A DNA stretch of 64,000 nucleotides from a virus. Below, in pieces: positions 3,259 through 58,711 of the stretch. The stretch covers positions 1,366 to 65,365 of IMG/VR virus record IMGVR_UViG_3300033555_000005, one strand, 5' to 3'. A program made the position numbers and the translations under genes. The notes under the pieces are model-generated. The model made no database searches and was not told the origin of the DNA. It worked only from the letters and a program-made list of their open reading frames with translations. Within the stretch, counting starts at the first letter, position 1. Each line of letters begins with the position of its first letter.

Positions 3259-3272
3259 CTCTCGCACCGCCA

Positions 3273-3303
3273 CTGCCCGTCCCGCACACCGCGGGGCGGG
3301 CAG
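3273..3303 (+). terminator. stem-loop terminator candidate
   Basis: CTGCCCG-CCCGC...GCGGG-CGGGCAG inverted repeat 14 nt after stop 3258. Confidence 0.6.
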
Positions 3304-3307
3304 TCGG

Positions 3308-3347
3308 CGTTACAAGTGCAAGACAGTCGTACAGACGTGTTACGCTC
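3308..3347 (+). promoter_or_regulatory. promoter, copy 2 of 40-bp repeat
   Basis: CGTTACAAGTGCAAGACAGTCGTACAGACGTGTTACGCTC; extended -10 TGT-TACGCT upstream of 3392 gene. Confidence 0.75.
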
Positions 3348-3391
3348 TCTGAGCGCGGTCACCTGGCACCGCCTCACACCTGGAGCACCTC

Positions 3392-4651: not shown

Positions 4652-4800
4652 TGTCCAAGTTCCTCGAGGGCCAGCCCCTTACCCCGCAGGAGCGGCAGAC
4701 GCTGATCGCCATCATGCACAAGTCGTACGAGACGGCGACGACGCAGGAGCGCAAGAACGAGGTCACGCGCATCGCCCACAAGCTGGGGCTGGCCCGCTAG
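4651..4800 (+). CDS. small hypothetical protein (49 aa, MSKFLEGQPL...)
   Basis: TGATG coupling to upstream gene; stop shares CTAG with convergent helicase stop. Confidence 0.65.
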   Translation: MSKFLEGQPLTPQERQTLIAIMHKSYETATTQERKNEVTRIAHKLGLAR

Positions 4801-6509
4801 ACGCTGTGCGTCGCCAGGAACATGCCGAGGGTGCCGGCGTTCATGACGATGCCGCCCTTGACCGTTCCGCGACCGGTGCGCATGGCGTTCGCGACGCGCT
4901 GCTTCTGCTCGGTCAGCTCGGCGTAGTACTCCTCGAGGCTGCCCTCGATGACGTAGTTGCGGACGTGCACCGCGTCGTGGAACTCCAGGTTCGCCCGGCG
5001 CACGCGGGCGTTGCGCTGCGTCACGCGCCCGGCGGTGAACGGGATGTCCAGGTTGAACAGGTGGTTTGCCTCGGGCAGGTCGACGCCGTAGCCGCCGGCG
5101 TCGCTGGTCAGGAACAGGCGCACTCCCGGCTCGGTCTTGAAGCGGTGCTTGTTGGCGTTGCGCTTCTTCAGCGACATGTCTCCGTCGTAGCGCACCGCGA
5201 CGTTGCCGAAGCGCTGCTCGAGGATGCGCAGCGCGAGCTTGTGGTAGCTGAACACCACGACCTTGTTGGTGCGGTTCGCGCCGTCGAGCGTCTGGCAGCA
5301 CTTGCAGACGCCGGCCAGCACGTCGTCGATGTCGAGCTGCACCTCGTCCATCTTCGGCGTCTCGTCCAGGCCGTCGAGCACTCCGTTGACGTACAGCTCA
5401 GCCGCGTAGGCGCTGCCGTCGAGAGGCTTCGGCACCCGCTTCTTCTTGCCGCGGATCGTCTTCGTGATCATCGGCCAGTTGTCGGGGTCGGCGTCGTGCA
5501 CAGCGAGCTGCTCGAGGTACCGCTGCGCGCTGCCGATGATCTGGTCGGGGTGCGCGCACAGCATCCGCATGCAGCTGATCTTTGACATGATCTTGCCCTG
5601 CGCCTCGGCGTCAGCGCTGTCGCCGGCGTACATCGCCATGAGGTCGAAGCCGTTGCGGCTCTTCTTGGACAGCTCGGCCAGCTCGAACTCGAGGTCGCGG
5701 CTCATGCGCTGGTAGACCTTCGCGCTCTCAGCGTCGAACTCGACACGCACCCGCGTCGGTCGGCTCATCGTCGGCATGTACTCGCGCACGCCGGGGTCGT
5801 CGGCGTCGAGGCTCACCGAGACGTCGGACAGCATCTCGTTGAACAGCGGCAGGTTGATGTACTCCTCGACCTTGCCGTACTTGTTGCGCCGGCAGAACGT
5901 CTTGTCGAACAGGTCGGCGCGGCCGAAGACGCTGTCGTCGATCCAGGCCAGGAGCTGGAAGACCTCGTCGCAGCGACCGTTCTCAGCCGGCGTGCCGGTC
6001 AGGCCGAACCGGAACGGAGACTCGCCGAAGGTCTCGCGGATGGCCTGCGTGATGCCGGCGGCCGGGTTCTTGATGACCGTCACCTCGTCGACGACGCAGT
6101 ACATCTGGTTGAGCTTGATGACCTCGCTGTGGTCGTCGACCACTTGGTCGTAGCCCAGCACGACGTACCGCGGGTGCTCGCGCTGAGCCCGCTGGTACAG
6201 CTCCATGCGCTTCACCGGGGGGCCGTCGATGACGATGCACGGTGCGCCGCCGATCCACCGTCCCTTCTCGTCCTTCGTGCCGCCGGTGAACTGGCTGATG
6301 GCCTGGGCGGTCTGGTCCTTCAGGCCGCCGCCGGTGACCCAGACGCCCGCGAAGTCGTCGCCGAACTCCTCATGCAACTCCTCGACGGCGGCGATTGTCA
6401 TCGGGGTCTTGCCGGTTCCCACGCCGGCGCTGACCAGGAACAACCCGCGGTCGACCATCCGCTCGACGACGGGACGCTGGTAGGGACGTAGAACCCCCGT
6501 GAAGCTCAT
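4797..6509 (-). CDS. SNF2/DEAD-like superfamily 2 helicase
   Basis: LRPYQ Q-motif, GVGTGKT, VVDEVT, LTGTP, SDAGGYGVDL, QRNARVRR; ATGA overlap with HNH stop. Confidence 0.92.
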   Translation of the reverse strand: MSFTGVLRPYQRPVVERMVDRGLFLVSAGVGTGKTPMTIAAVEELHEEFGDDFAGVWVTGGGLKDQTAQAISQFTGGTKDEKGRWIGGAPCIVIDGPPVKRMELYQRAQREHPRYVVLGYDQVVDDHSEVIKLNQMYCVVDEVTVIKNPAAGITQAIRETFGESPFRFGLTGTPAENGRCDEVFQLLAWIDDSVFGRADLFDKTFCRRNKYGKVEEYINLPLFNEMLSDVSVSLDADDPGVREYMPTMSRPTRVRVEFDAESAKVYQRMSRDLEFELAELSKKSRNGFDLMAMYAGDSADAEAQGKIMSKISCMRMLCAHPDQIIGSAQRYLEQLAVHDADPDNWPMITKTIRGKKKRVPKPLDGSAYAAELYVNGVLDGLDETPKMDEVQLDIDDVLAGVCKCCQTLDGANRTNKVVVFSYHKLALRILEQRFGNVAVRYDGDMSLKKRNANKHRFKTEPGVRLFLTSDAGGYGVDLPEANHLFNLDIPFTAGRVTQRNARVRRANLEFHDAVHVRNYVIEGSLEEYYAELTEQKQRVANAMRTGRGTVKGGIVMNAGTLGMFLATHSV

Positions 6510-38805: not shown

Positions 38806-39387
38806 CTACTTGCGGCGGTGCTCGGGGTGCGTGCTGGTCAGCACGTACCGCTGCATGTCGGGGCTGTCGTACAGCTCGTCGAAGCGGAGCTGACGACCGC
38901 TGATGCGCAGCGTGGTGTCGCGGTTGGACGCGTCGAAGTGCCCGCTGCTCTGGATCGTCTCGACGTCGAAGACACGTCCGCGGAAGGCGAAGCGGTTGTG
39001 CAGGTGCTTCTCACGGTTCTCGACGAGGTCGATGTCCAGCCCGGCGCGGCGGGCCTGGTCGTAGCTCAGGCGCAGCACGATGTTGTCCATGACCGCGAAG
39101 CCACCGTCACCGCCCTGCTCTTGGCCCTGCTGCACGACGGCCGACAGGACCGGGATGCGCCGAGGTCCGTCGAAGCGCTTGCCGCCCTCGATGTGCCCCT
39201 CGTCGTAGATGTCGTCGGTGGTCGTGCCGACGCCGTCGGCGAAGTTCTCGTCGAGGAACCACCAGTCGACCTCGGTGCCGTACACCTGCTGGTGCAGCTC
39301 GAGGCCGCGGTCGATGCGCTCCAGCTCGTCCTTGGTCGAGAAGAAGCGACCCCGCGGGCGGCCGAAGAAGCGTGAGGTGCCGGCCAT
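38806..39387 (-). CDS. neck/head-closure protein (gp14-like)
   Basis: VYGTEVDWWFLD, DDIYDEG, HNRFAFRGRVFDV; synteny. Confidence 0.65.
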   Translation of the reverse strand: MAGTSRFFGRPRGRFFSTKDELERIDRGLELHQQVYGTEVDWWFLDENFADGVGTTTDDIYDEGHIEGGKRFDGPRRIPVLSAVVQQGQEQGGDGGFAVMDNIVLRLSYDQARRAGLDIDLVENREKHLHNRFAFRGRVFDVETIQSSGHFDASNRDTTLRISGRQLRFDELYDSPDMQRYVLTSTHPEHRRK

Positions 39388-39830
39388 CAGCCGTGCTTCG
39401 CAGCCCAGGCAGCGCCCTCGGGCGAGAGCGCCTGCGGTCCGCTGTGCTGCAGGCCGGGGCGCAGGTCACGCGCGTGGTCAAGCATGGCCTTGCCGAAGCC
39501 CTTGCGCTGCATGTTCTTGCTGACCTGGGCCTTGTAGATGGCCGAGCGCGTTGCGTCTGGGCTGCCCTGAGGGTGGGGGGTACCTGTGTACTCGCCGTTG
39601 CGGTTGGTGCTCGGGTCGAACCAGTCGACGTAGCCGATGCGACGACCGCTGTTGGTGTGAACGGCCTCGACGCCCTTGGCGTACTTCGGGTTGGTGCCGG
39701 TCTCGGGCTTGCCGAACAGGCCGATAGGTCGGGTCGTGTACTTGCCGCCGAGTCCGAAGGTGCGTGGCGCGAGGTGCTGGCTGCTGCCGAGGTGGCTCAC
39801 GCCGGCGTCGAAGCTCTCGTTGCGGCTCAC
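39387..39830 (-). CDS. GNAT-family acetyltransferase 1
   Basis: AQVSKNMQRKGFGKAMLD acetyl-CoA motif A; LSPEGAAWA. Confidence 0.75.
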   Translation of the reverse strand: MSRNESFDAGVSHLGSSQHLAPRTFGLGGKYTTRPIGLFGKPETGTNPKYAKGVEAVHTNSGRRIGYVDWFDPSTNRNGEYTGTPHPQGSPDATRSAIYKAQVSKNMQRKGFGKAMLDHARDLRPGLQHSGPQALSPEGAAWAAKHG

Positions 39831-46558: not shown

Positions 46559-46951
46559 TCATCTTGAAGAGCGTGGCTTTCGCAACGTGCCGATCTTCGC
46601 TCTGCCGGTGTACCGGTCCGGTCGGTCCCCCTCATGGACTAGAGCCGACACGGGCCTCTTGAGCAGTTCCGCTGCAGTCAGGCGGTGATGCCCGTCTGCC
46701 GTGAGCGTCTCTCCACCGCGCCGAGCCAGGAGAACAGGGGGCACGTCCGCGCCGTCGCGGTAGCCCTGCATGGCTGACTGCACGCGCGCATCAGACTCTG
46801 GGTACCGCTGGAACCGCACCCTCGAGGGGTGGATGTCCTCCTTGCTGACCCGCATGGGAGCACCAGGCTCTCCATCGTTCACCAGCTCGTTGACAGCGTG
46901 GTGGAGGTAGACGTCGCCTCCGAACTGCTCGCCCAGCACGCGAAGGCTCAT
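46559..46951 (-). CDS. stand-alone ParB/Srx-domain protein 1
   Basis: VPPVLL...TADGHHRLTAA; N-terminal LGEQF. Confidence 0.82.
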   Translation of the reverse strand: MSLRVLGEQFGGDVYLHHAVNELVNDGEPGAPMRVSKEDIHPSRVRFQRYPESDARVQSAMQGYRDGADVPPVLLARRGGETLTADGHHRLTAAELLKRPVSALVHEGDRPDRYTGRAKIGTLRKPRSSR

Positions 46952-46970
46952 GTTCGGGATGCTCCCACGC

Positions 46971-47004
46971 CGAAGGGCCGACCCCGTGAGGAGCCGGCCC
47001 TTCG
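46971..47004 (-). terminator. stem-loop after major capsid gene
   Basis: CGAAGGGCCG/CGGCCCTTCG 10-bp perfect inverted repeat. Confidence 0.75.
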
Positions 47005-47021
47005 GTGAGGTGCGGGTTCAG

Positions 47022-47999
47022 CTAGTTGGTCTCGGCCACCACGACGGCGTTGTCCGTGATGAGACCGAAGCCCCAGATGGCGTACCAGGCGAGGGCGTGC
47101 TCACGACCGAAGTCGAGGATGCCGCCGTCGCGCAGCTCCACCGGGAGGCTGATGGCGTGGCCGAAGGCGTTGTCGCCCATGAAGATGGCCTGGTAGACGT
47201 CCGGGCCGGTCGTGACCTTGCGGACCTGAGTCGTCTCGATGAAGACGACGTCGTTGATCCGGCCGATCTCGCCGAGCATGAAGTTGCCGGGAGCGGCGTA
47301 CTTCGAGACCTCGAAGAACTCGGGGTCGTCCCGCAGACGACGGGACTGGTGCGGGTGCACGAAGCAGACGTAGGTCTCGCCGAGGCGCGGGACGTTCTTG
47401 GTGGCGAGCGTCTCGACGGCGTCCTTGATGACGGCCATGGTCATGTGGAACTGGCCGGTCAGGCCCGCCCGGTTGGCCGCCGGCGTGCCGTCGGCGTACG
47501 GGTTGTAGCTGGCGTTCGTCGACAGCTGCGGGTTGGAGTACCCGAAGATGATGGACGACGCCGTGAGGATGGTGTCGCGGGCGCTGCCGTCGAGGTACAG
47601 CGCCATGTTGCGGCCGAGCAGACGCGAGGCGCTGGCCATGACGTCGTCGAACGACGCGTTGAGCAGCAGCTCGGAGACGGCGACGGCGTAGCCCTGCTCC
47701 GCGACGGTGATCTGGTACTGCGAGGCGCTCAGCGCGTTCGTCTGCATGCGCACGCCCTCGACGAGCTGCGAGGCGCTGCCGAGGTTGTTGTAGCGCATGA
47801 AGTTGATCGTGAGACCGGGCTGGACGCCCAGCTCGGTCTTCTTCACCGCGAACTGCTCGAAGCGCAGGATCGGCATCGACTGGAAGAGGATCTCCTTCGA
47901 CCAGATGGACTGGATCGCCGGACCGAGCTGCGAGTTGGCACCCGCGTAGGCCGTGGGGGACGCCGAGAGGTACGGCGTACCGGTGATGGCATTCGCCAT
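47022..47999 (-). CDS. major capsid protein, N4-gp56 family
   Basis: 325 aa; LRFEQFA, GLTINFMRY, YVCFVHPHQSRRLRDD, GEIGRINDVVFIET, DFGREHALAWYAIWGFG. Confidence 0.93.
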   Translation of the reverse strand: MANAITGTPYLSASPTAYAGANSQLGPAIQSIWSKEILFQSMPILRFEQFAVKKTELGVQPGLTINFMRYNNLGSASQLVEGVRMQTNALSASQYQITVAEQGYAVAVSELLLNASFDDVMASASRLLGRNMALYLDGSARDTILTASSIIFGYSNPQLSTNASYNPYADGTPAANRAGLTGQFHMTMAVIKDAVETLATKNVPRLGETYVCFVHPHQSRRLRDDPEFFEVSKYAAPGNFMLGEIGRINDVVFIETTQVRKVTTGPDVYQAIFMGDNAFGHAISLPVELRDGGILDFGREHALAWYAIWGFGLITDNAVVVAETN

Positions 48000-48041
48000 G
48001 TGGGACTTCTCCTTCTGCTTGTCGTGGGTGCCCGGCTGGGT

Positions 48042-48887
48042 CTAGCCGAACATCCCGCGGTCACGCTGCTGCTGCGAAGCAGCGCCCAGCAGCCGGCCCC
48101 GGTTCTGTGCGTACGTCGTCATGTCCATGCCGCGAATGTCATCGGCGCTGACCGTTTCGTATCCCGAGTTGTTGTCCATTGGCCCCACTGGCGGTGCAGT
48201 GACACCGACACCCCGAGCGCCCTGGCGGGCGCTCTGGGTAGCCGAGGCCACCTGCTGGAGGATAGAGGCGCTGCGCGAGACCATCGCGGAGACCGCGGAG
48301 TCCAGCTCGGCCTCGTTGTTGCCGGCGACGAGGTCGCGCAGCTCAGGCAGGATGTCGTTGCCGTGCTGCTCCAGGAGCTGGCCGCGGTAGGCCATCAGCT
48401 CGTTGAACTGCCGCTCCTTGGCCAGGATGGCGTCGCGCTCGGCGAGCTGCTGCTGCAGCGTCTGCACCTGGCTGAGGGTCTGCTGCTGGTACTCCTCGAG
48501 CTTCTGCCCGAAGCTCAGCTCGGCGAGGCGCTTCTCCTCCGAGGCGTTCGCCGCGGCCAGCTCGGCGGCAGCCTGTGACTCCTGGCGGGCGGTGAGGTCG
48601 GTGGTGAACGCACCCATCTGGTCCTCGAGCTTCCTGCGCGCGGTCGCCTCGGCCTCGATCCGCTCGTAGAGCTTGTCCTTCTCCTGCTGACGCGCCGCCT
48701 CGACCTGCTCGGCCGTGAACATCTGGACGGTCGGGGCTGCCACGACGGGCGGCGCGGTCGGGATGACGATGCTCGTCGGGTCGCCGACGGGGGTCGACAT
48801 GGTCGCGTCCCCGACGATGCTGCGGTGCAGAGCCAGCAGGCCCTTGATGTCGCCGCGCTGCAGGAGCGCGATGGCGAGCTTGTCCAC
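48042..48887 (-). CDS. capsid scaffolding protein
   Basis: Q/E-rich coiled coil immediately upstream of MCP; C-terminal DIRGMDMTTYAQNR. Confidence 0.82.
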   Translation of the reverse strand: MDKLAIALLQRGDIKGLLALHRSIVGDATMSTPVGDPTSIVIPTAPPVVAAPTVQMFTAEQVEAARQQEKDKLYERIEAEATARRKLEDQMGAFTTDLTARQESQAAAELAAANASEEKRLAELSFGQKLEEYQQQTLSQVQTLQQQLAERDAILAKERQFNELMAYRGQLLEQHGNDILPELRDLVAGNNEAELDSAVSAMVSRSASILQQVASATQSARQGARGVGVTAPPVGPMDNNSGYETVSADDIRGMDMTTYAQNRGRLLGAASQQQRDRGMFG

Positions 48888-48982
48888 GGTGTTGCCTCCG
48901 GTGTCGTTGTCCTAGTGCCGCGCGAGTGCGCAGCTGTCCCGTTGGACATCCTGGAGTCACCGAGGTCGGACCTCGCGGAGAG

Positions 48983-49759
48983 CTAGCGGACGGTGCTGAA
49001 CTCGACGTCGAGCTTGTGCGCCGGCATGAGCGCGCGACGTGCCGACGTCGTCGGGTCACGGTGGAAGTCCGCGATGTCGTGGCCCTCGAACTGGCTGCTC
49101 TGCATGAGCGTGTAGCCGGGCTGCCGGACGTAGTGGTCAGTCTCCGAGACCGACTTGCCGGTGAAGAGGTTCAGCTGGTCCGGGTCACGGTGGTCCGGCG
49201 CGTTGTAGCGGTTGTCGTGCGCGTCCTTGGTCTCGTTGAACGGACGAGGTACGTGCGGCGGCTTCACGACGCCGCTCTGGTCCTGCATGTAGCTGTGGTT
49301 GAAGTCCTGGTTGGACGCCGTGTGCCGCGGTGACGTCGAGGACGGAGCCTTGAAGGCGTTCCAGTTGATCTTGGGGAACGTGCCTGTCTCGCCGACGCGG
49401 GCATGGATGGCGCGCTTGATGCCGTAGCCGGTTTCGCTCTGGATCTCTCCGTACTTGCCGCCTTCCTGGTACTGGTCGTGCGCAGGCTCGACTTCGTACA
49501 CCCGGCTGCGGTAGCGCGGGTCGGGGTCGTGGTTCTCGGGGTGCGCCATGGACCGTGACCCGGTGTTGATGGCGTAGCTCCACGCCTCTTCCTCGCCGTG
49601 CGTGGCGAAGGCCATGTCAGTGTGCGCCGGCTTGCCGGCTCCCGAGCTGAAGCCTCGCGACGACAGCGCGTCCGCGCCGGTGTGCGACGACGGTCGGATG
49701 TGCGTGTCGTCGATCTGCCGCGGGGTGCCGTGGAACTGCTTGCGCTGAAGGTTTCTCAC
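48983..49759 (-). CDS. ADP-ribosyltransferase-like protein (Arr-type)
   Basis: FHGT, AFAT...AWSYA, RVYEVEP, GEIQS motifs; GTGA coupled to portal stop. Confidence 0.68.
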   Translation of the reverse strand: MRNLQRKQFHGTPRQIDDTHIRPSSHTGADALSSRGFSSGAGKPAHTDMAFATHGEEEAWSYAINTGSRSMAHPENHDPDPRYRSRVYEVEPAHDQYQEGGKYGEIQSETGYGIKRAIHARVGETGTFPKINWNAFKAPSSTSPRHTASNQDFNHSYMQDQSGVVKPPHVPRPFNETKDAHDNRYNAPDHRDPDQLNLFTGKSVSETDHYVRQPGYTLMQSSQFEGHDIADFHRDPTTSARRALMPAHKLDVEFSTVR

Positions 49760-51534
49760 GTCGTGTTGTCCACGTCCGTCGCAGGCCGGCGGCGGCCGGC
49801 GACAGTGGTTCCGTACGCGCGGGTGTTCAGGCGGGTCATCAGCGCCTGCGTGTCGCCGCTCATCGCCATGACCGCCGAGGCGGTTCCTGCGGTGCTGCCG
49901 GCCGTGACGTCCGGGCCGCCGGCGCTGACCTGCTCCGGGCCGCCGCCGCCGGCCATGCCTGCGACCGGGGGAGCGAAGGGCTGCGGCGCGCCGGGTACGA
50001 ACTGGCCGGTCTCTGCCTGCACGAGCGCGCTGATCTGGCTCTTGAGCATGTCAAGCGCGCCCTGGTTGATGGCGTCCTCGACCAGCTCCAGGAACGTCTC
50101 GCGCAGCTTCTCGTCGGGGAACACCTCGCCCAGCTCCTCCAGTGCGTCCTTCTTTGACACCAAGCCCATCTGCATCTTGAGCATAACCTCGTTGAGGATG
50201 ACGGTCTTGTCCACAGGCAGCGGCGGTGGCCAGTGGATGACCGACACGAAGCTGACAGGGTCGTCGACGTCGAGCAGCGGCTGCTGGTACGCCTTCAGCT
50301 CCTCGTTCGCCTCAGGGGACCACTGCAGTGCGAGCGGCTCCTTCATCGCCAGCGTCATGAGAGCGATCTCGTTGATCTTCTCGAGCATGCGGCCGTACGT
50401 CATCTTCTTGTGGTTGTAGCGCTGCATCATCGGCTGGTACTGGATGGCCAGCGCGACGCCGCTGGTGTTGCTGATCGGCTGCACGTCACCGAGCGCGCCC
50501 TCGGGCACACCGGTCAGCTCGTGCATGGCCTTCTTCAGCAGCTCGAGGTACTGGATGCCGGCCTGGACGCCGCCACCGCCCAGCTCGAGGTTGAAGACGT
50601 TGGCGTCCTTCGGCAGGCCGCCCCACATCTTCTTCGCGCCGCGCTCGAGCTGGCTGCTCTTCGCGCCCGTCATCACGGTCACCGGCGCGGCGTGGTAGTT
50701 GACGATGTCGGAGACGTCAGTCGCCTTCTCGTTGTACTCCCGGTTCAGCGTGGTGATGTCGTTGATGTCGGACAGGCCCCACGGACTGCCGGACACCATG
50801 ATGTTCGGAGCGAAGGCGATGGGGATGATGCCGAGCGGGTTCGGGCGCGCGTCGATGAGCTGGTCGTTGATGTACTCCTCGATGTACCCGTCCGTAAGCA
50901 GCTCGGTGTAGGTGAACACCTGCCGGGTGCCCTCAGGCGTCGTTCCCCAGAAGCGGTACTTCAGCTTGAACCGGAGGAGTCGCTGCTTGTCGTGCGGGTG
51001 GAACTCGGGGAAGCAGTAGCTGCTGTTGAGCGGGATGATGCGCAGCTTGCCAGGCATGAAGCGCTGCAGCACGCCGGGGATCGGCGCGCCGGCCTGGTCG
51101 ACGCCGGTGTAGTACGGCTCCTCGTAGGCGACCTTCGCGAAGACGTCTCCGCTCACCGACCCTTGGTTGCCCAGCTCCCAGAGCAGCGAGTCCTTGTGGT
51201 TGTCCAGCTCCCACACGCGCTCGAGCAGCGACGGAACGATGTGCTCGGTCTCCTTCGGCGAGCGGAAGTTGACCCCGCGGCCGAACGTGAAGTTCGTGAT
51301 GAAGTCGGAGAACGCCTTGCAGTAGTTGAAGGTGAGCTGCGGCTCGCCCGGCTCCCGGCGGTAGCTCCAGTGGTGGCCGAGGTAGAAGGCCCAGTTGTGC
51401 GCGTACCTGTTCAGCCGAGGACCGTGCACCTCGAACTCCTCGTCGGCAAGCTCGACCAACCCCATGGGTGAGATGGCGATGGTCAGGTCGCTGCCGGACG
51501 CGCGGTGCGAAGGGCTGTCGAAGCTGATGGTCAC
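49756..51534 (-). CDS. portal protein (SPP1 gp6-like)
   Basis: 592 aa; FNYCKAF, VSGDVFAKV, PWGLSDINDI..LNREYN, SNTSGVALAIQYQP. Confidence 0.92.
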   Translation of the reverse strand: MTISFDSPSHRASGSDLTIAISPMGLVELADEEFEVHGPRLNRYAHNWAFYLGHHWSYRREPGEPQLTFNYCKAFSDFITNFTFGRGVNFRSPKETEHIVPSLLERVWELDNHKDSLLWELGNQGSVSGDVFAKVAYEEPYYTGVDQAGAPIPGVLQRFMPGKLRIIPLNSSYCFPEFHPHDKQRLLRFKLKYRFWGTTPEGTRQVFTYTELLTDGYIEEYINDQLIDARPNPLGIIPIAFAPNIMVSGSPWGLSDINDITTLNREYNEKATDVSDIVNYHAAPVTVMTGAKSSQLERGAKKMWGGLPKDANVFNLELGGGGVQAGIQYLELLKKAMHELTGVPEGALGDVQPISNTSGVALAIQYQPMMQRYNHKKMTYGRMLEKINEIALMTLAMKEPLALQWSPEANEELKAYQQPLLDVDDPVSFVSVIHWPPPLPVDKTVILNEVMLKMQMGLVSKKDALEELGEVFPDEKLRETFLELVEDAINQGALDMLKSQISALVQAETGQFVPGAPQPFAPPVAGMAGGGGPEQVSAGGPDVTAGSTAGTASAVMAMSGDTQALMTRLNTRAYGTTVAGRRRPATDVDNTT

Positions 51535-51587
51535 GCGGGTGCTCCTAGTCCTGGGCCGTCGTGCTGCTCAGGGGGAGTCTCCCCGGA

Positions 51588-51818
51588 TCAGTCCAGGGGT
51601 ACGGCGAGAGCGAGCTGCATCCCGGTCTCGGTCTCCTCGTACTGGAGCGCAAAGCTGCCCTCAGCCGGAAGGTCTGCCGTGCCACCGGCAGTCATGAAGG
51701 TCAGGCACTGGACGCCCTCGACGGTGGTCCAGGAAACCAGTGCGTCCAAGAGCTGCACGCCCTCTGGCAGGTCGAGCGCGTACTCCAGCAGCTCGCGCGT
51801 CACGCGGATGGTGGCCAT
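51588..51818 (-). CDS. hypothetical protein (76 aa)
   Basis: ORF between ParB gene and portal; MATIRVTRELLEYALDLP. Confidence 0.6.
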   Translation of the reverse strand: MATIRVTRELLEYALDLPEGVQLLDALVSWTTVEGVQCLTFMTAGGTADLPAEGSFALQYEETETGMQLALAVPLD

Positions 51819-51859
51819 GCTGTTACCCCGAGTAGTTGGTCTGAAAAGTTGAGCGTAGC

Positions 51860-52417
51860 TCAGACTCCGTGGAGGTCCCGCGCCTTCATGCCGAAGCCGA
51901 CCTCGGCGTCCATGTCGACGTGGTCGACCTTGATGGGCTTGCCGGCGGCGCGGGCGGCCGCGACGCGGTGGTGACCGTCGACGAGGACGTCCTTGCCGCG
52001 GATGCGCATGACCCGCGGGCGCGTGGGGCCGGACCCCGGCAGCCGGGAGCTGGCACGCGCCGTCTCGCGCTCGGTCTGCAGGGTGTGCAGTGGGTGGTTG
52101 GGCTGCAGCTCGCGGACCTCCGCGCCTGCCCAGTGCTCCTCGCCGCGGAGCTTGTACGCCTGCTTCGTCGTCGCCGTGTTGTCTCGGATGAAGCCGTGCG
52201 CCTCAACGTGCGCGCTTGGCTCGTCGTTGAAGTGGACGTTGCGGGGGTCGACCTCGCGGCCGCGGAAGCGCTGAGGCTCGTCGTAGGTCAGCACGCCCTG
52301 GCCAGGTGCGTGCTGCTGCACCGCGCCGTGGAAGTGCTCCGCGCGGCCGCCGGCGGCCTGCTTGCGCGCCGACGAGTGCAGCAGGCTCTCCATGCCGGGG
52401 AGCGGCAGCTGCCTCAC
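51860..52417 (-). CDS. stand-alone ParB/Srx-domain protein 2
   Basis: RPRVMR...VLVDGHHRVAAA; GTGA coupling. Confidence 0.82.
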   Translation of the reverse strand: MRQLPLPGMESLLHSSARKQAAGGRAEHFHGAVQQHAPGQGVLTYDEPQRFRGREVDPRNVHFNDEPSAHVEAHGFIRDNTATTKQAYKLRGEEHWAGAEVRELQPNHPLHTLQTERETARASSRLPGSGPTRPRVMRIRGKDVLVDGHHRVAAARAAGKPIKVDHVDMDAEVGFGMKARDLHGV

Positions 52418-52809
52418 CGGAACTGCTCCCTGTACATCCGCGTCGCCTCGTCGAAGACGTGATGCCGGCCGGGGTGAGCCGCCTGCAGGCGCGGCAGCAT
52501 GCGCTGGGCGTCGTGGGACATGCCGTCGACCGTGTGCGTCATCGGCAGGTCGGGGTGCTCCTTCAACGCAGCTCCGTGCAGCGCCGTCGCGACGCCCTTG
52601 CCGCGGTGGTCCTCGTCGACGGTCAGGCTGTCGGGGTAGAGCGTGCGCTCGGGGAAGTAGCTCTCGTTGACGTGGTAGGTCAGGTCGCCCACTGCACGAC
52701 CGCGGTGGAACGCCTGCACGCGGCCCTCGATGCGTCCGTCGTCCCCCACCTCGTGCTCGGTCTTGACGCGCAGGTTGCTGACGGGGTCACGGCGCTGACG
52801 CATCTTCAC
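52414..52809 (-). CDS. GNAT-family acetyltransferase 2
   Basis: LTVDEDHRGKGVATALH; C-terminal REQFR. Confidence 0.8.
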   Translation of the reverse strand: MKMRQRRDPVSNLRVKTEHEVGDDGRIEGRVQAFHRGRAVGDLTYHVNESYFPERTLYPDSLTVDEDHRGKGVATALHGAALKEHPDLPMTHTVDGMSHDAQRMLPRLQAAHPGRHHVFDEATRMYREQFR

Positions 52810-53138
52810 GGCCGGCGGCCAAGCGTGCGGTTCAGCGCCTTGCCGGCGTCGCTCGCGTGCGCGGAGTGCTGGATGGTCACGCTCGGCCAGCGACGAGACA
52901 CCTCGGCGTACATGGCGGTCGCCACTCCTCTGCGCTGGTGCTCCTCCTTGACCCACACGTTGGGGTGCGCACGAGGCGCGGCGTCCCCGTCGTGCAGTCG
53001 CTGGTAGACCGACAGCCCCCCGATGGTCTTCCCCTCGTGCTGGGCCTTGACGTGCATCGCCGGGAGGCCCCAGTGCGTCTGCGGCTCGTGCTGCACCTCG
53101 ATGGTGTAGTCGTCGAACTGCCGGCCGAGCGCGCTCAC
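52806..53138 (-). CDS. GNAT-family acetyltransferase 3
   Basis: VWVKEEHQRRGVATAMY, SDAGKAL; N-terminal MSALGRQF. Confidence 0.82.
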   Translation of the reverse strand: MSALGRQFDDYTIEVQHEPQTHWGLPAMHVKAQHEGKTIGGLSVYQRLHDGDAAPRAHPNVWVKEEHQRRGVATAMYAEVSRRWPSVTIQHSAHASDAGKALNRTLGRRP

Positions 53139-53857
53139 GGCGTGAGGAACTGGCGTCCCAGCGCCCGGTGCAAGCTGCGACGGCCGATGGCCTGAGCGCT
53201 GCTGCCGAGCGTCACGATCTTCTGCTCAGCGAACTCGCCCGGCGCGAGCCCGCCGAAGTTGTTGACGCTGTTCTGCCCGCGGGTCTCGGTGGTCATCGCC
53301 GGCCGCGCCTGGCGGCTGAACATCTGGCTGTGCGAGCGCCAGGCCGCCTCCTCGCCGTCCGCGCTGAAGTTCCGTCCGGTGCCGCCGTGGCCGAAGGTGT
53401 CGTGCACCGCTCGGAACATGTCGTTCTCGTCGTTGGTGAAGAACGGGTGCGCACCGGTGACCGCGGTAGGGAGCACCTTGATGCGGTTGTTCTCGTGCAG
53501 GTCGCGCATCATCGCCTTGCTGTTCGGCGCGCCTGTGCTGGTGACGTACGGGTCGCTGCTGGCCTTCTCGACGCTGATGCCCATGCCGCCCTGGTGCTGG
53601 GGCTTGGTCATGAAGTCGTACTGCCGGCCGACCTCCTCGCGCATCGCCTTGAAGTGGGGCAGCGCCGCGTCGTCGTGCATCGGGGCGGCCGCGTAGGCGC
53701 GCGCGACGTGATGCGCGACGACGGGGTCGACGGCGACGCGGGAGAAGTCGCGGTTGCTGCTCGGCCCCATGCCGGTCAGCGCGCGGTACCGGGCGATGCC
53801 CTGCGCCACGGCGGGCACCGGGCCACTGCCTACGACGAAGTGCTCCATGCGGCTCAT
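53135..53857 (-). CDS. HDxxGH-motif protein (zincin-like metal-binding candidate)
   Basis: NDMFRAVHDTFGHG...GEEAAWRSH...TETRGQNS; C-terminal LGRQF. Confidence 0.6.
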   Translation of the reverse strand: MSRMEHFVVGSGPVPAVAQGIARYRALTGMGPSSNRDFSRVAVDPVVAHHVARAYAAAPMHDDAALPHFKAMREEVGRQYDFMTKPQHQGGMGISVEKASSDPYVTSTGAPNSKAMMRDLHENNRIKVLPTAVTGAHPFFTNDENDMFRAVHDTFGHGGTGRNFSADGEEAAWRSHSQMFSRQARPAMTTETRGQNSVNNFGGLAPGEFAEQKIVTLGSSAQAIGRRSLHRALGRQFLTP

Positions 53858-54249
53858 CAGCGTGCCCTCTCGTTCCAGAGCAGCACGTTGACGTGCTTCT
53901 CGCCGTTGATCAACGCGTTCGCGATGCGGTGGTGGCCGTCCACGATGCGGTAGCGGCCCTTCGTGTCCTTGATGACGCCGGGTGCTTGCTGGTCGTGGTT
54001 TGGGGCGTGAAGCGTGCCTTGGTCCACGATCCCCTGCGTCGGTCGCAGCGCAGACGTCTTCACGCGGGCGGTCTTCGGGTTGTACTGCGAGACCAACCGG
54101 TACTCGTGGTTGCTCTTCTCGATCTGCGGGTGCGGGAAGACGTCACCCACCGGCACAGTCTCGTGGCCCTTCGCCGGGAAGGCGGGAGCCTCCATGCCGG
54201 GGAACGGGGGCTGGTAGACGCCCCTGCCGAAGTGCGCCGTGCGGCTCAC
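53857..54249 (-). CDS. stand-alone ParB/Srx-domain protein 3
   Basis: LRPTQ, PGVIK..GRYRIVDGHHRIANA; GTGA/TGATG coupling. Confidence 0.82.
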   Translation of the reverse strand: MSRTAHFGRGVYQPPFPGMEAPAFPAKGHETVPVGDVFPHPQIEKSNHEYRLVSQYNPKTARVKTSALRPTQGIVDQGTLHAPNHDQQAPGVIKDTKGRYRIVDGHHRIANALINGEKHVNVLLWNERAR

Positions 54250-54602
54250 AGCTTGCGCACTTGGCCGATGTCGTTGTGGTTCCAGCGGACCGGGTCTGAG
54301 CTGACGAGCGGCTTGCCGTCCCACGTCATCGTGTCACCGTGCAGATGCACGCCGGCCTTGTCTACGCGGAACACGCGGCCAGTGGCCACGCCGGAAGCGC
54401 CCTTGCCGGCCATCAGCCGGTCGTGGACCGTCTCGCCCTCCTTGCCGATGGCCAGCCGAACGTGGTCACCTGCCTGCAGCTCGTGGCTCTCGATGTGGCC
54501 AGAGTGCCGCGGCAGCTGTCCAGCTTCGGCTGCGAAGTGCTCGCTGCGCGTGGTTGGCTCAGCGGCCTGTCGCATGCGCGCCTTGCGGGGGAGGTTGCTC
54601 AT
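54246..54602 (-). CDS. His-rich hypothetical protein (118 aa, MSNLPRK...)
   Basis: ATGA coupled to peptidase; LQAGDHVRL SH3/KOW-like strand. Confidence 0.65.
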   Translation of the reverse strand: MSNLPRKARMRQAAEPTTRSEHFAAEAGQLPRHSGHIESHELQAGDHVRLAIGKEGETVHDRLMAGKGASGVATGRVFRVDKAGVHLHGDTMTWDGKPLVSSDPVRWNHNDIGQVRKL

Positions 54603-55396
54603 CGGACGACGACCGCGCCTTCGCCACCCTGGTGCAGCAGCCAGTCGAGGTCGTCGAGCAGCACGTAGACCATGCCGCCGGGCCGGCCGAGGTCGGCGAC
54701 GCCGTAGTCCTCGCCCCAGCTCTGCTGGATGACGGCGACCTCCTTGGTGCCGGTCCACTCGCCGGGCATCCGCATCTTCAGCCGCACCGCAGGGCTGTAG
54801 ACGCAGTGGCCACCGGACTGCGCGCTCGCGCGGTCGACCTCCACCAGACCGCTGGGGTGGGGGCTGAACATGCTCTCGAGCCACGGCAAGCCGTAGACGA
54901 CCCCGCCGACTGCCCTGTTGCCCCGCACGACGTCGCCGATGGCGTCGCCGCTGCCGGCCCCGACCCACCAGAAGCTGCTCCACCAGCCGTGGTCGCGGCC
55001 GTAGACCATCCCGCTGTGCACCGAGGTGCCGCCGTAGTCCGGGCCGGCCTCACGAGGGCACTGGCTGCCCCAGTCGCAGCCGGGCCAGGGGTCGAGGTGC
55101 TGCACGTCGTGGTAGGCCAGCGCCATCGCCTGCTGGTCGGTGTGCGCCGGCTTCAGGCGCTTCGGGGCGCTGTTCCGGCGGTGCGTCATGCCGTAGAGCA
55201 CGCACTGGCCCTCGAGGCCCTGGTCCATGCCAGGTCCCGGCTTCCAGCTGCGAGTGGCCCGCGGCGCGTTCTGGGGCACCTCCGTCATCAGGCGCTCGAC
55301 GGTGTACGCCCGGTTCGACTCCGGGAAGTAGGGGACTCGGTCGAGCCGCGGGTCCAACGCGACGAGGCCGTTCTTCAGCTGGCGCGGCTCGGTCAT
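54599..55396 (-). CDS. papain-like cysteine peptidase (C1-type)
   Basis: DQGLEGQC (oxyanion Gln, catalytic Cys), GGHC (His), QQSWG (NSWG-equivalent), GGTS. Confidence 0.85.
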   Translation of the reverse strand: MTEPRQLKNGLVALDPRLDRVPYFPESNRAYTVERLMTEVPQNAPRATRSWKPGPGMDQGLEGQCVLYGMTHRRNSAPKRLKPAHTDQQAMALAYHDVQHLDPWPGCDWGSQCPREAGPDYGGTSVHSGMVYGRDHGWWSSFWWVGAGSGDAIGDVVRGNRAVGGVVYGLPWLESMFSPHPSGLVEVDRASAQSGGHCVYSPAVRLKMRMPGEWTGTKEVAVIQQSWGEDYGVADLGRPGGMVYVLLDDLDWLLHQGGEGAVVVR

Positions 55397-55970: not shown

Positions 55971-56252
55971 CTAGCGAAGAGGCTTGAGCTTGCCCTTGGC
56001 GCGGAGCTTGTCCCCACGCTTCGTGACGACGTCCTGGCCGGACATCTTGCTGGCCGCGCGCTCGGCGACCGTCTTGCTGGGCTTCTGCGCGTCGACGATC
56101 TTGTCGAAGCGCTCGCGGGCGGTCGGCACCGGAGCAGCGGCGCTCCACGACTTCGGCGCAGGAGGCGTCGAGCCCATGCCGGACTGAGACATGCCGGTGC
56201 GGCTGTCCGTGTACACGCCGGGCGGCGTGCGCTTGTCGTTCCAGAGCGACAC
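55971..56252 (-). CDS. basic hypothetical protein (93 aa)
   Basis: K/R-rich C-terminus KRGDKLRAKGKLKPLR. Confidence 0.6.
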   Translation of the reverse strand: MSLWNDKRTPPGVYTDSRTGMSQSGMGSTPPAPKSWSAAAPVPTARERFDKIVDAQKPSKTVAERAASKMSGQDVVTKRGDKLRAKGKLKPLR

Positions 56253-56256
56253 GACG

Positions 56257-56655
56257 TCAGTCCGTGACGACAGCGGCGTTGAGCGTCTCGTAACGCCCGC
56301 CGGCGCGCTGCTCCTGGACGTACTCGATGACGTTGCCCTCGCCCGCGCCGCCGGCGAACGAGCCGAGGTACATCGGGCTGTCGACCCAGGCGGCCGAGCC
56401 GACGTGCGCCCGCTCGCGGTAGACCTCGTCGGCGTGCTTGTACGTGGTGTCGCTGTTCACGGCGTTGGGGTGACCGGGGGCGCTGATGCCGCCCTCGGCC
56501 ATGCCGCGCTGGAAGTCGTTCGGCACGTCGGTGTCGGTCGCGAGGCCCTCCTCGAAGCGGAGAGGGCCGCGCAGGCCGGGCGCGCCGGGAGCCATCTTGC
56601 GCTCGTAGACGGCCCCGACGTGCTCGGGGAACTGGGGTGCGGGGGCGATGCCCAT
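56257..56655 (-). CDS. conserved hypothetical protein downstream of terminase
   Basis: GAGGAG RBS; LRFEEGLATDTDVPNDF, RAHVGSAAWVD. Confidence 0.75.
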   Translation of the reverse strand: MGIAPAPQFPEHVGAVYERKMAPGAPGLRGPLRFEEGLATDTDVPNDFQRGMAEGGISAPGHPNAVNSDTTYKHADEVYRERAHVGSAAWVDSPMYLGSFAGGAGEGNVIEYVQEQRAGGRYETLNAAVVTD

Positions 56656-56714: not shown

Positions 56715-58301
56715 CTACCGGCCGTAGAAGGGGTTCACGCTCTCCTGCGCGGTCGGCATCGTCACTGCCTTGGTCATGTACACGGCGAGGGCCAGACTGT
56801 CCGCGTAGTCGTCGTGGGCCTCGGCAGCGTTCGGGGCGGCCGCGAGCAGGTACTTGCCCTGGTAGGTCTTCTCGAGGTCGGTCATCTGCTGGATGAAGCG
56901 CTGGTAGCTCTTCTTCCTGCGCACCCGCGCGCCGGCCGGCCAGCCGAGCAGGCCCTGGTTCATGACCTCCATGAGGTGCTTCCACCGCGCGCTCTGGTCG
57001 ACGCTGTTGCTGGCGAGAGCTTCAACCTGCGCGCCGGGCATCAGGCGCTGCAGACGATCCGCGACGACGTCGCCGACGCCCTGCCCGTCGACGGCGACCG
57101 CCATCACGCTGTAGTGCTGCGCGAAGTCGATGATCCGCGCGTACTGCTCCTCCCACCGGTCGCCGTGCATCTCCATCCAGTTCAAGACGCGGTGGTCGTA
57201 GTAGCCGAACTCGTTCGGGTTGGCCCAGTCCACCCACAGCGCCGTCACGACGGTGCTGTCCTGCTTCCTCGCAGGGTCGATGCCGAGGATGATGGGCGAG
57301 TCGTACCAGCGGTCGACGAGGGCCTGCATGCTGGTGTCACCCAGCTCCTCCAGCCTCTCGGCGGTGGTGAACATGCCTCGCTCGAGCAGCCACTTCAGCG
57401 CGTAGCTGAGCTGGAACTCGTCACTGTCCTCGCCGATGCGCTGCATGGTCTTGCGGACGTGCTTGAGGTAGCGCGGGTTCGCCTTCGCGCACGAGCGCCA
57501 GTCGTGCTGGAAGTGGTTCTGCCGTGCGCCCCGCTTCGTCGACATCCGCTTGTTCAGCTGGATCGTGTTGTAGAAGACGCCCTTGTGCGTGAACGGCGTG
57601 CCGGTCATGACCATGGTGGCGTTGTAGAACGCGCCCATCGGGGTGATGCTCTGGTTGACGACCTTGTCCTCGGCGCGCTGCGCCTCGTCGATGACGATGA
57701 GGTGGTAGGACTTCGACTCGATCTGCGCCTTCGGGTTCGCAGTCTGCATGCGGCAGATGGAGCCACTGACCTTCAACCGCAGCAGCTTCCCGCCACCCTC
57801 GAGCTTGTCGTCGATCTCGGGGTCCGCGAGCAGCTCCTTGGCCGCCTCGGACGACAGCACGAGGTTGATGCGCTGGAACAGCGTCTCAGCCTGGGACTCG
57901 ACCGGAGCGAAAGTACCTACCCAGAAGCCGTTCTTGAAGACGCCGAACCAGTCAGGCCACATGCTCGCGAGCTTCGGTAGCAGGATCATGCAGCTCGCGA
58001 CGACGTACGCGATGGTCTGCGTCTTGCCGCTCTGCCGGCTGAACAGCGCTGTGATGGCGTCGCCGTCGTTCAGCACGATGCTCTCGACGACGCGATAGGC
58101 GAACTCGCGCTGGTAGCTGAAGAGCGGATCGCCAGCAAGCTCGTCGGCGAACTGCAGGATGCGCTCGCAGATGTTGTGCACGAAGTCGGCGTCGTCTGAC
58201 GACAGAACGCGCTGCTCATCTTCCTGCATCGCACCGGTCAGTGCGTCAAGTTCGTCGTCCAGGTCCGAGTCGAGCCCCAGGTCTTTCACCGTTGTCGTCA
58301 C
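56715..58301 (-). CDS. terL: terminase large subunit
   Basis: FSRQSGKT Walker A, IVIDEAQ Walker B, TGTP, ILGIDPAR, AVDGQGVG, HDDYADSLAL. Confidence 0.95.
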   Translation of the reverse strand: MTTTVKDLGLDSDLDDELDALTGAMQEDEQRVLSSDDADFVHNICERILQFADELAGDPLFSYQREFAYRVVESIVLNDGDAITALFSRQSGKTQTIAYVVASCMILLPKLASMWPDWFGVFKNGFWVGTFAPVESQAETLFQRINLVLSSEAAKELLADPEIDDKLEGGGKLLRLKVSGSICRMQTANPKAQIESKSYHLIVIDEAQRAEDKVVNQSITPMGAFYNATMVMTGTPFTHKGVFYNTIQLNKRMSTKRGARQNHFQHDWRSCAKANPRYLKHVRKTMQRIGEDSDEFQLSYALKWLLERGMFTTAERLEELGDTSMQALVDRWYDSPIILGIDPARKQDSTVVTALWVDWANPNEFGYYDHRVLNWMEMHGDRWEEQYARIIDFAQHYSVMAVAVDGQGVGDVVADRLQRLMPGAQVEALASNSVDQSARWKHLMEVMNQGLLGWPAGARVRRKKSYQRFIQQMTDLEKTYQGKYLLAAAPNAAEAHDDYADSLALAVYMTKAVTMPTAQESVNPFYGR

Positions 58302-58366: not shown

Positions 58367-58711
58367 CTAGCGCCGGCGGTCGTTGAAGACGTTGGCAGTG
58401 CGTGCGGTCTGCATGATGGAGGACACGGCCTGCTCGACGCCGTACGTCTTCGCGTTCGGGTTCGCGCCCCGCTTGGCCGCTCCCTCGGTGTTCGCGTGCG
58501 GCCCGTGCTCGTGCGTGGTGTACCGGCCGCCGGGGTGCTCGACCGAGTAGTGGCCGACCGTGGCCCCCGACACCAGCTTGCCGTTGTCACCGCGAGAAGG
58601 CTCGCTGCTGTAGCTCACCTTGAACTCGTGGCCATTGGCCTGGACGACGGCGCTCTGGCCGCCCTTCAACTTGTGCAGCGCGGCGTGAAGACTCATGTCG
58701 CTCATCTTCAC
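58367..58711 (-). CDS. His-rich hypothetical protein
   Basis: GTGA coupling; THEHGPHA. Confidence 0.7.
   Translation of the reverse strand: MKMSDMSLHAALHKLKGGQSAVVQANGHEFKVSYSSEPSRGDNGKLVSGATVGHYSVEHPGGRYTTHEHGPHANTEGAAKRGANPNAKTYGVEQAVSSIMQTARTANVFNDRRR

Follow-up and report, generated by a model that had tools for sequence, protein, structure and literature searches.

Several small and otherwise unrelated proteins of an uncultured virus carry similar peptides of the type LG[RE]QF close to one end. The question raised by this locus is whether these peptides represent a genuine shared signal and, if so, what this signal does. The window analysed here comprises 64,000 nucleotides (positions 1,366 to 65,365 of the IMG/VR record IMGVR_UViG_3300033555_000005).

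Terminal peptides in the window

The five peptides in which an earlier note had seen a common tag were all present where it had placed them (Table 1), and the synonymous codon differences it had described among the LG[RE]QF copies were confirmed. Six-frame translation of the 65.5-kb record revealed exactly three occurrences of LG[RE]QF, all in coding frames and each at most 13 residues from a protein end. A single gene junction (HD/mini-GNAT) harbours two ALGRQF copies, 32 nt from each other and identical at 15 of 18 nucleotides; the mini-GNAT gene begins with a GTG overlapping the TGA of the HD gene, and the ART gene with a GTG overlapping the portal TGA. Two weaker variants proposed before fared differently: the protein at 54246 starts with a decayed leader lacking QF, whereas HLAPRTF in the protein at 39387 is internal, and the start reads MSRNESFDAG instead. 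The latter protein gave no Pfam or PHROG match, and its GNAT label is that of the earlier note.

Table 1. Features of the window related to the terminal peptide.
Feature	Position	Strand	Basis
GNAT-like protein, start MSRNESFDAG (short leader form); HLAPRTF further in	39387..39830	-	ORF
MSLRVLGEQF leader, ParB/Srx-fold protein (gene 46559-46951)	46922..46951	-	ORF and peptide
MRNLQRKQF leader, Arr-like ART (gene 48983-49759)	49733..49759	-	ORF; body related to L138 protein
YREQFR at C-terminus, GNAT2 (gene 52414-52803; end ...MYREQFR*)	52417..52434	-	not conserved in homologues
MSALGRQF leader, mini-GNAT (gene 52806-53138)	53115..53138	-	ORF, Pfam Acetyltransf_1, homologues
ALGRQF near C-terminus, HD-family protein (gene 53135-53857; end ...HRALGRQFLTP*)	53147..53164	-	family conservation
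MSRMEHFVVG, HD protein N-terminus, short leader form	53828..53857	-	HD alignment consensus
ParB-like paralogue, start MSRTAHFGRG (short leader form)	53857..54249	-	weak ParBc_2 and phrog_1033 matches
118-aa protein, start MSNLPRKARMRQ, decayed leader without QF	54246..54602	-	cf. MSNLGPQF, MSNLSPHQF, MSNLNPAQF in relatives
Papain-like cysteine peptidase	54599..55396	-	phrog_16701 match; tag link not supported

The carriers are separate genes encoding 77-258 aa and are not fused into one large polypeptide. As had been claimed, they belong to different folds, which were assigned by Foldseek for the ParB protein (Srx/ParB-N), by Pfam for GNAT and by Pfam in relatives for the Arr-like ART. In AF2 models, residues 1-12 of the ParB/Srx protein had pLDDT values <50 and its domain about 90 or more, and residues 1-9 of the HD protein had a pLDDT of 43; the Arr-ms Pfam match begins at residue 12, directly behind the tag. 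The leader is predicted to be disordered, and judged from the models and the Pfam match the tag is an add-on to complete domains.

Within the window alone, some four-of-five pattern common to three termini is expected by chance. LG.QF was the most improbable terminal pattern, 4.7% of composition shuffles did as well, and the evidence for a tag from the window only is marginal (look-elsewhere p about 0.05). A null model of random internal windows was discarded, as it was inflated by real repeats and paralogues. We nevertheless regard the leader as real because the comparative evidence in relatives is decisive.

The leader in related phages

Homologues of the ParB/Srx protein, of both GNAT families and of the Arr-like ART begin with a consensus leader in uncultured, GC-rich actinobacterial phages, a group that has the same terminase-portal-capsid module as the window phage. 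An N-terminal L..(.)QF leader of the type M..(D/E)(H/N)L(S/N/G)P.QF was found in eight of nine metagenomic ParB homologues, and leaders were present in all six mini-GNAT homologues (e.g. MSASDHLSPDQF, MSQRALGEQF). GNAT2 homologues have N-terminal leaders as well (MSAADHLSELQF, MSAQEHLGSQF, MSAKDALGRQF, MSRNEHFADG), and the closest one (72% identity) ends ...FDESKRSYL, without the C-terminal REQF. The body of the window ART matched an L138 protein starting MSNLSPHQF (tblastn, 2e-7), which clusters with Arr-ms-positive tagged proteins, and ART relatives carry the leader; one tagged ART gave a weak ART-PolyVal match. Searches with ParB, ART and GNAT against 50,697 phage records (tblastn) gave nothing useful for cultured tagged relatives.

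From these comparisons, the leader is a peptide of about 12 residues with the consensus M-x-A-S-[DE]-[NH]-L-[SN]-P-x-Q-F, ending in Gln-Phe, and the window copies at the ParB, GNAT and ART starts are best described as divergent or degenerate forms of it. Of 48 tabulated tags, which carry 14 family labels, 31 have exactly 12 residues, and BLAST sorted the post-tag parts of 33 tagged proteins into 14 clusters. The conserved stretch stops abruptly at Q-F, with variable residues behind it. Codon use in the tags is diverse (four codons for Leu, both AGY and TCN for Ser, three for Pro), indicating conservation at the peptide level. The proposal of a terminal signal conserved as a peptide was thus borne out by homologues and codon turnover, and on sequence evidence this conservation extends over proteins of different folds. 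Tags were no more similar within genomes than between them (permutation p 0.69), which gives no indication that they co-evolve with a genome-specific receptor, and genome-specific co-variation of the tag was rejected.

Two further candidates were set aside. A 133-aa family starting M..LAPNPQF in the terminase-portal interval is a conserved BRock-like protein and not a tag, because its BRock form reads ...APAPQVPE; a 44-aa 'tagged' ORF in the G002 provirus is doubtful, the capsid module and HD both being absent there. BRock and Alone3 gave zero tag-pattern matches.

The motif was N-terminal in 9 of 9 strict (P 8e-9) and 11 of 15 loose matches (P 1e-7) in a 58.6-kb relative, in 7 of 7 in 17 kb of G001 (P 9e-7), and in 5 of 10 in the window genome (P 8e-4). 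An unanchored DNA pattern had two matches in IMG/VR, both directly behind a start codon; with a related, slightly broader unanchored pattern, none of 80 loci in bacterial genomes was N-terminal. These counts argue strongly that the motif is essentially N-terminal in the relatives. The earlier view of a tag at either terminus therefore stood for the N-terminus and fell for the C-terminus, where the GNAT2 copy is unconserved and the HD copy is a feature of its own family.

The window shows a late-operon setting, with tagged genes whose starts overlap the portal and HD stop codons, and no promoter- or terminator-like site was found on the coding strand of the terminase-MCP interval. The terminase-portal interval of L135 and of L144 contains tagged genes as well, in L144 on the opposite strand. 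In G001, a complete IMG/VR phage of 107 kb, and in a 70-kb Logan contig, however, tagged arrays were located 13-30 kb upstream of the terminase. The arrays of tag-rich relatives adjoin integrase, regulatory or repressor-like and small early-type genes, and, being remote from the head genes, may have early or prophage-stage expression. While the expected terminal enrichment in relatives was thus found (P 1e-7 to 1e-9, N-terminal), the tag is not restricted to the head region as had been supposed.

The HD family and candidate peptidases

The HD family is virus-only, its gene lies between terminase and portal, and the motif occurs at both ends of the protein. Close homologues retain RRSLHRALGRQ[FW] near the C-terminus, and distant ones have [RN]NL[SNQ]P.QFGEM or HMQS.QF 20-30 residues before the end; since it is kept in both, the C-terminal motif is a family feature and not a scar. 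The N-terminal alignment consensus is MxRxxxFxVG, and certain members begin MLNPQQFDVG. Three tag-bearing genomes (the window phage, L135 and G001) have the HD gene, and it was absent in BRock and Alone3, which gave no match to the tag pattern; with few related genomes, this co-occurrence may be phylogenetic. In the window, L135 and the distant L159, the gene immediately after HD is a tagged one. HD domains also form part of multidomain proteins, Rhodococcus phage E3 gp205, annotated as 'structural protein', and a 'large polyvalent protein' of a Planktothrix phage.

Members of the family share invariant His, Asp and Glu. Searches for its fold yielded only insignificant matches (Foldseek E 0.74 and VIA Z 3.1 at best), none of 45 members matched Pfam, no PDB sequence matched the HD protein, and AFDB and Atlas searches returned uncharacterised viral clusters only. 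Many of the weak structural matches, all insignificant, were zincin-like enzymes, and H-D-x-x-G-H is not known to be a peptidase motif. With no significant fold match, a role of HD as a protease is unsupported.

The link to the C1 peptidase that the earlier note had envisaged did not hold. A homologue of the papain-like peptidase was found in L010 only (28% identity); the complete, tag-bearing G001, with MCP and portal 81% and 60% identical to those of the window phage, had no match to it, and the enzyme was rejected as tag partner. A Prp system was likewise rejected, as no PF04327 match was obtained at E of 1 or better in G000, G001 and G003, whereas control genomes matched. The portal-scaffold interval contains no protease gene, and no canonical prohead protease accompanies the tag.

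Possible roles of the leader

The capsid targeting sequence of T4 IPI-III, their sole conserved part, directs these proteins into the scaffolding core (PMC3012670). The leader resembles it as a short N-terminal peptide on otherwise unrelated proteins of one phage, those of T4 diversifying rapidly. The T4 sequence has no similarity to the leader, however, and late operons are not the setting of many tagged genes; the capsid module of the window is of a BRock-like type that includes a scaffold but lacks a protease gene in the portal-scaffold interval, and neither a T4-type prohead protease nor its cleavage motif was found. The capsid and scaffolding proteins (CP, SP) of phage 80alpha and ribosomal protein L27 carry the leader MLxx(D/N)LQ(F/L)F|A(S/H)KK, which is removed by the cysteine protease Prp (PMC5744158, PMC9405229). 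Both leaders extend over 9-15 residues from Met1 on non-homologous proteins, with (D/N)-L ... Q-F and a terminal Phe. They differ in spacing (NL-x2-3-QF here, NLQFF|A there) and in the variable residues that here replace Ala-Ser-Lys-Lys; PF04327 is missing from the window record and G001, and Actinobacteria are not among the long-L27/Prp lineages listed in a review (PMC9405229).

Among polyvalent proteins (Iyer et al. 2017, PMC5512222), ParB/Srx-like, ART and peptidase domains are likewise encoded with virion genes, and the relevant passages describe solo DdrB-like ParB domains adjoining virion genes, packaging of P1 DdrB and predicted delivery with the DNA. The peptidases in these passages are metallopeptidases, in contrast to the papain-like enzyme of the window; the carriers here are separate small genes, each with a short leader and without fusion, and no shared short leader is described in the passages concerned. 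No description of the leader was found in the literature searched, in line with the earlier note, which knew of none. Another likeness is to double-glycine leaders, short N-terminal leaders on diverse cargo that are read and cut by papain-fold C39 peptidase domains; here, there is neither a Gly-Gly site nor an ABC exporter, and the tag is not accompanied by a conserved papain-like peptidase.

The best reading, which we put forward tentatively, is that the tag is a leader for trafficking or processing of its carriers; a short constant sequence ahead of changing enzyme bodies has the look of an address signal. This address would be read by one phage-encoded partner, would most plausibly bring the enzymes into the procapsid for delivery with the DNA, and may be trimmed after Q-F. 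By analogy, the ART and ParB families among the carriers agree with virion cargo known elsewhere, T4 Alt being a packaged ART. The HD protein would be the best candidate for fellow cargo, adaptor or leader-processing enzyme because of the motif at both its ends and the tagged genes often directly following it.

Alternatively, though this is rather unlikely, the leader could be a docking motif that brings host-takeover or anti-defence enzymes to one intracellular hub, a host machine or a non-capsid phage factor, with no packaging. Tagged arrays in early-type or immunity-proximal regions of the 70-kb relative and G001 would suit this role, whereas tagged genes within the head module of the window, L135 and L144 would not. 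A short, disordered tag is linear-motif-like, but a docking motif would not require a near-fixed distance to Met1 (31 of 48 at exactly 12 residues) or a strictly N-terminal position, which none of the 80 bacterial pattern matches had. The lack of systematic tag differences between genomes is expected with a conserved receptor; for enzymes as chemically diverse as an ART, two GNAT families, ParB/Srx and unknowns, however, no single substrate hub suggests itself.

More specific than the trafficking or processing reading, and unlikely in this full form, would be an undescribed sorting system of Q-F leader and HD protein, in which HD recognises and perhaps cuts the leader and loads swappable ARTs, acetyltransferases, ParB/Srx proteins and unknowns into the capsid for co-injection. 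Quite unlikely is a removable pro-peptide that holds toxic enzymes in an inactive state; a phage hydrolase, HD or in some phages the papain-like peptidase, would activate them by cutting after Q-F, independently of encapsidation. The sharp motif end with variable sequence behind it and the likeness to the Prp-cleaved leader on non-homologous proteins are consistent with cleavage, but Prp is absent, and any inhibition by the leader is hypothetical. For HD, the motif at both ends, as in self-processing viral proteases, the invariant His, Asp and Glu and the zincin-like enzymes among its matches stand against the insignificance of all these matches (Z at most 3.1) and a motif not known from peptidases; the papain-like peptidase lies close to tagged genes in the window and L010 and yet has no match in G001. 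That the ALGRQF pair is a junction duplication from gene insertion and the rest coincidence, leaving a functionless tag, would agree with the marginal window statistic, the near-identical adjacent copies and the unconserved GNAT2 REQF, but is very improbable and largely refuted by dozens of independent N-terminal copies with synonymous codon turnover on unrelated proteins of relatives, by their positional enrichment, and by the separate conservation of each ALGRQF copy in its own family.

If it functions as an address, the 12-residue leader would label the delivered or co-regulated effector set of a whole soil actinophage group, most proteins of this set being without known function, and would make it simple to load foreign proteins into Streptomyces-type phage particles; T4-like cargo tagging would then have arisen independently in a protease-less capsid lineage. 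Even without packaging, one peptide on more than 10 unrelated enzyme families would point to a single undiscovered partner. Should the sorting-system reading be true, the leader would by itself suffice to recognise injected effectors in a large set of soil actinophages.

Q-F leader in the window and its relatives

All five terminal peptides listed in the earlier note are present where it placed them. In a six-frame translation of the whole record, LG[RE]QF occurs three times, always in a real frame and at most 13 residues from a protein end, and the copies indeed use different synonymous codons. Two of them lie 32 nt apart at the junction of the genes for the HDxxGH-motif protein (HD protein) and the mini-GNAT: the former ends ...ALGRQFLTP*, and the latter begins MSALGRQF, its GTG overlapping the HD stop codon. 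In a look-elsewhere test restricted to the window, some four-of-five pattern common to three termini proved to be expected by chance; the least probable shared terminal pattern, LG.QF, was equalled by 4.7% of composition shuffles. The tag statistic from the window alone is marginal, and the reality of the tag was decided by the relatives.

The 130-aa ParB protein has metagenomic homologues (47–79% identity) beginning MTRALSEHQF, MSAPDHLNPGQF, MSAQDNLSPHQF, MAASEHLNPQQF and others alike, and those of the 110-aa GNAT begin MSASDHLSPDQF, MAASEHLSPYQF, MSQRALGEQF and others alike; the two families are unrelated, yet have one common leader. GNAT2 homologues begin MSAADHLSELQF, MSAQEHLGSQF and MSAKDALGRQF. 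Tagged genes occur seven in a row on a 70-kb Logan contig (at least 13 within 58.6 kb), two to four in tandem on small JGI contigs, and at least five times within 17 kb of G001, a complete 107-kb IMG/VR phage. From 48 tags with 14 family labels, all of which have Q and F by construction, the consensus M-x-A-S-[DE]-[NH]-L-[SN]-P-x-Q-F was obtained, with Leu in 40/48 and a length of exactly 12 residues in 31/48. After the tag had been stripped, 33 carriers fell into 14 BLAST clusters (12 GNATs, 5 of an unknown family, 4 Arr-like ARTs, 2 ParB/Srx and ten singletons), which upholds the claim that the tag sits on otherwise unrelated proteins. The Pfam Arr-ms match of the Arr-like ART carriers begins at residue 12. 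Because homologues and their contigs carry the same leader, MSLRVLGEQF, MSALGRQF and MRNLQRKQF of the window are divergent members of the family; MSNLPRKARMRQ (gene 54246) looks like a decayed copy.

The motif is N-terminal in 9/9 strict (binomial P = 8e-9) and 11/15 loose matches (P = 1e-7) of a 58.6-kb relative, in 7/7 matches of the 17 kb of G001 (P = 9e-7), and in 5/10 matches of the window genome (P = 8e-4). As an unanchored DNA pattern, D-N-L-S-P-x-Q-F gave two IMG/VR matches, both right behind the start codon; for a related, slightly broader unanchored pattern, the 80 loci checked in bacterial genomes were all inside ordinary proteins. Leader codons vary (four for Leu, three for Pro, both AGY and TCN for Ser), confirming conservation at the peptide level. 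In the AlphaFold model of the ParB protein, residues 1–12 have pLDDT <50 and the Srx/ParB-N domain ~90 or more; in that of the HD protein, the values are 43 for residues 1–9 and 91.6 overall. The models place the leader outside the protein fold.

Since M-S-R-x-x-[HS]-F-x-x-G heads three window proteins, MSRNEHFADG replaces the long leader at the same position in the GNAT2 family, and a stretch ...TAREQFEML... is common to the N-terminal regions of gp101 and the HD-containing gp102 of mycobacteriophage Cali, MSRxxHF..G is probably a short variant of the leader. The adjoining Cali genes (634 and 433 aa) share ...(I/V)TAREQFEML.PW.REA... Protein starts and ends also showed a third motif, [FW]-[NH]-D-[RK]-R.

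Coordinates of window genes, terminal motifs and related loci
Feature	Sequence	Position (strand)	Detail
Terminase	window	56715–58301
MCP	window	47022–47999
ParB/Srx protein	window	46559–46951 (−)	130 aa
ART	window	48983–49759 (−)	Arr-like
GNAT2	window	52414–52803 (−)
Mini-GNAT	window	52806–53138 (−)
HD protein	window	53135–53857 (−)
ParB-like paralogues	window	51860–52417; 53857–54249
Short motif, HD	window	53828–53857 (−)	MSRMEHFVVG
Short motif, ParB paralogue (gene 53857)	window	54220–54249 (−)	MSRTAHFGRG
Short motif, GNAT-like (gene 39387)	window	39801–39830 (−)	MSRNESFDAG
~130-aa gene	window	56260–56652 (−)	between terminase and 55971–56252
Third motif, gene end	window	58367–58711	...VFNDRRR*
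Third motif, gene start	window	55971–56252	MSLWNDKR
Third motif, starts of four successive small genes upstream of terminase	L135 (relative)	4964–6360	MVEFNDRR and similar
Third motif, gene end	L010 (relative)	4418–4651
Peptidase homologue	L010	5576–6694
gp101, gp102	Cali (L004)	2714–5912

Genomic setting

The 65.5-kb phage record (G+C ~68%) has a CheckV completeness of 66%, a 101.6-kb contig holds ParB and HD proteins identical to its own, and the genomes of relatives with an 81%-identical MCP measure 107–115 kb; it is therefore probably a fragment of a larger phage genome. Nearly all window genes are on the minus strand. Small enzyme genes are scattered from the terminase to past the MCP: a papain-like peptidase, the HD-motif protein, two mini-GNATs and three ParB-like genes stand among the head genes, the ART gene immediately after the portal, and a further ParB gene after the MCP. 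The start codons of tagged genes overlap the stop codons of the portal and HD genes, no promoter- or terminator-like site was found on the coding strand between terminase and MCP, and the tagged genes are part of a late operon.

The window and G001 are 81% identical in the MCP, 60% in the portal and 45% in the HD homologue. L135 keeps the window's gene order of terminase, HD, tagged GNAT and portal, and a further relative, L144, has two tagged genes between terminase and portal on the opposite strand. The capsid module is also present, at lower identity (portal ~53%), in Streptomyces phages BRock and Alone3, where portal, scaffold and MCP are contiguous, without intervening genes; these two phages gave zero matches to [NH]-L-x3-Q-F and have no HD homologue.

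Three further observations concern neighbouring genes. All BRock-like phages keep the ~130-aa gene next to the terminase (gp155 in BRock, gp72 in Alone3). Two ParB-like paralogues have P-[LF]-P-G-M-E-[SA] near their N-termini (MRQLPLPGMESLL; ...QPPFPGMEAP). The sole homologue found of the papain-like peptidase (28% identity, in L010) has a Lys/Ala/Thr-rich N-terminal extension and lies ~1.2 kb downstream of a tagged GNAT.

Possible roles of the leader

The observation of the earlier note is confirmed and extended, and its interpretation is partly upheld: the Q-F peptide is a real leader of the address type, with no description found in the literature searched and a destination that can be proposed only tentatively. 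An address or processing leader is favored by the pairing of variable bodies with a short, disordered N-terminus that stays constant and stops sharply at Q-F, by the late-operon placement with its start/stop overlaps, and by carrier classes known as virion travelers, such as T4 Alt. P1 DdrB also travels in the virion, and solo ParB genes adjoin virion genes (PMC5512222). Precedents are the T4 capsid-targeting sequence (PMC3012670) for an address-type leader and the Prp-cleaved leader common to non-homologous proteins (PMC5744158, PMC9405229).

Three findings argue against packaging specifically: in tag-rich relatives the tagged arrays are 13–30 kb away from the terminase, on its upstream side, and have integrase, repressor-like and small early-type genes as neighbours; neither Prp nor a conserved peptidase was found to accompany the tag; and tags are no more alike within than between genomes. 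Of the capsid-targeting or protease-recognition signal proposed in the earlier note, the terminal address-type leader stands through the relatives, and the head-region setting does not, given these distant arrays. A trafficking or processing signal with capsid delivery is proposed tentatively, at somewhat less than even chances. Docking to a hub other than the capsid is less likely, and an activation pro-peptide is less probable again; part of the probability is assigned to none of these readings. Chance or scar similarity, to which the marginal 4.7% of the shuffle test would point, is very improbable because the leader recurs on unrelated families in relatives with N-terminal enrichment of P down to 8e-9.

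HD family and C-terminal copies

The C-terminal tag that had been claimed for GNAT2 (...MYREQFR*) is not kept, a 72%-identical homologue ending ...SKRSYL, and its REQF is regarded as a chance match. ALGRQF near the HD C-terminus proved conserved, as RRSLHRALGRQ[FW] in dozens of close homologues; more distant ones have [RN]NL[SNQ]P.QFGEM or HMQS.QF 20–30 residues before the end. N-termini read MSRxEHFxVG in most members and MLNPQQFDVG in some. With the retained C-terminal copy and the MLNPQQFDVG starts, the motif is a native feature of the family at either end of the protein. In L159, a distant phage, the HD protein (44% identity) begins MLNPQQFDVG, the overlapping next gene begins MSAAENLSAEQF, and SRxxHFQDA, akin to the short leader form, occurs in three small genes just upstream. 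The HD-tag link rests on few genomes, which are partly related to one another.

The family is large and virus-only (phrog_3170), with invariant H137, H152-D153, H157, E169, H176 and TRGQN 192–196. The domain is also found within Rhodococcus phage E3 gp205 (annotation "structural protein") and within a Planktothrix phage "large polyvalent protein". It has no Pfam model, and fold searches gave no significant match, none to any solved fold; zincin-like enzymes turn up repeatedly among the non-significant matches, a lead rather than a result. With a confident model (pLDDT 91.6) that matches no solved fold significantly, the HD protein is a good target for structural and biochemical work.
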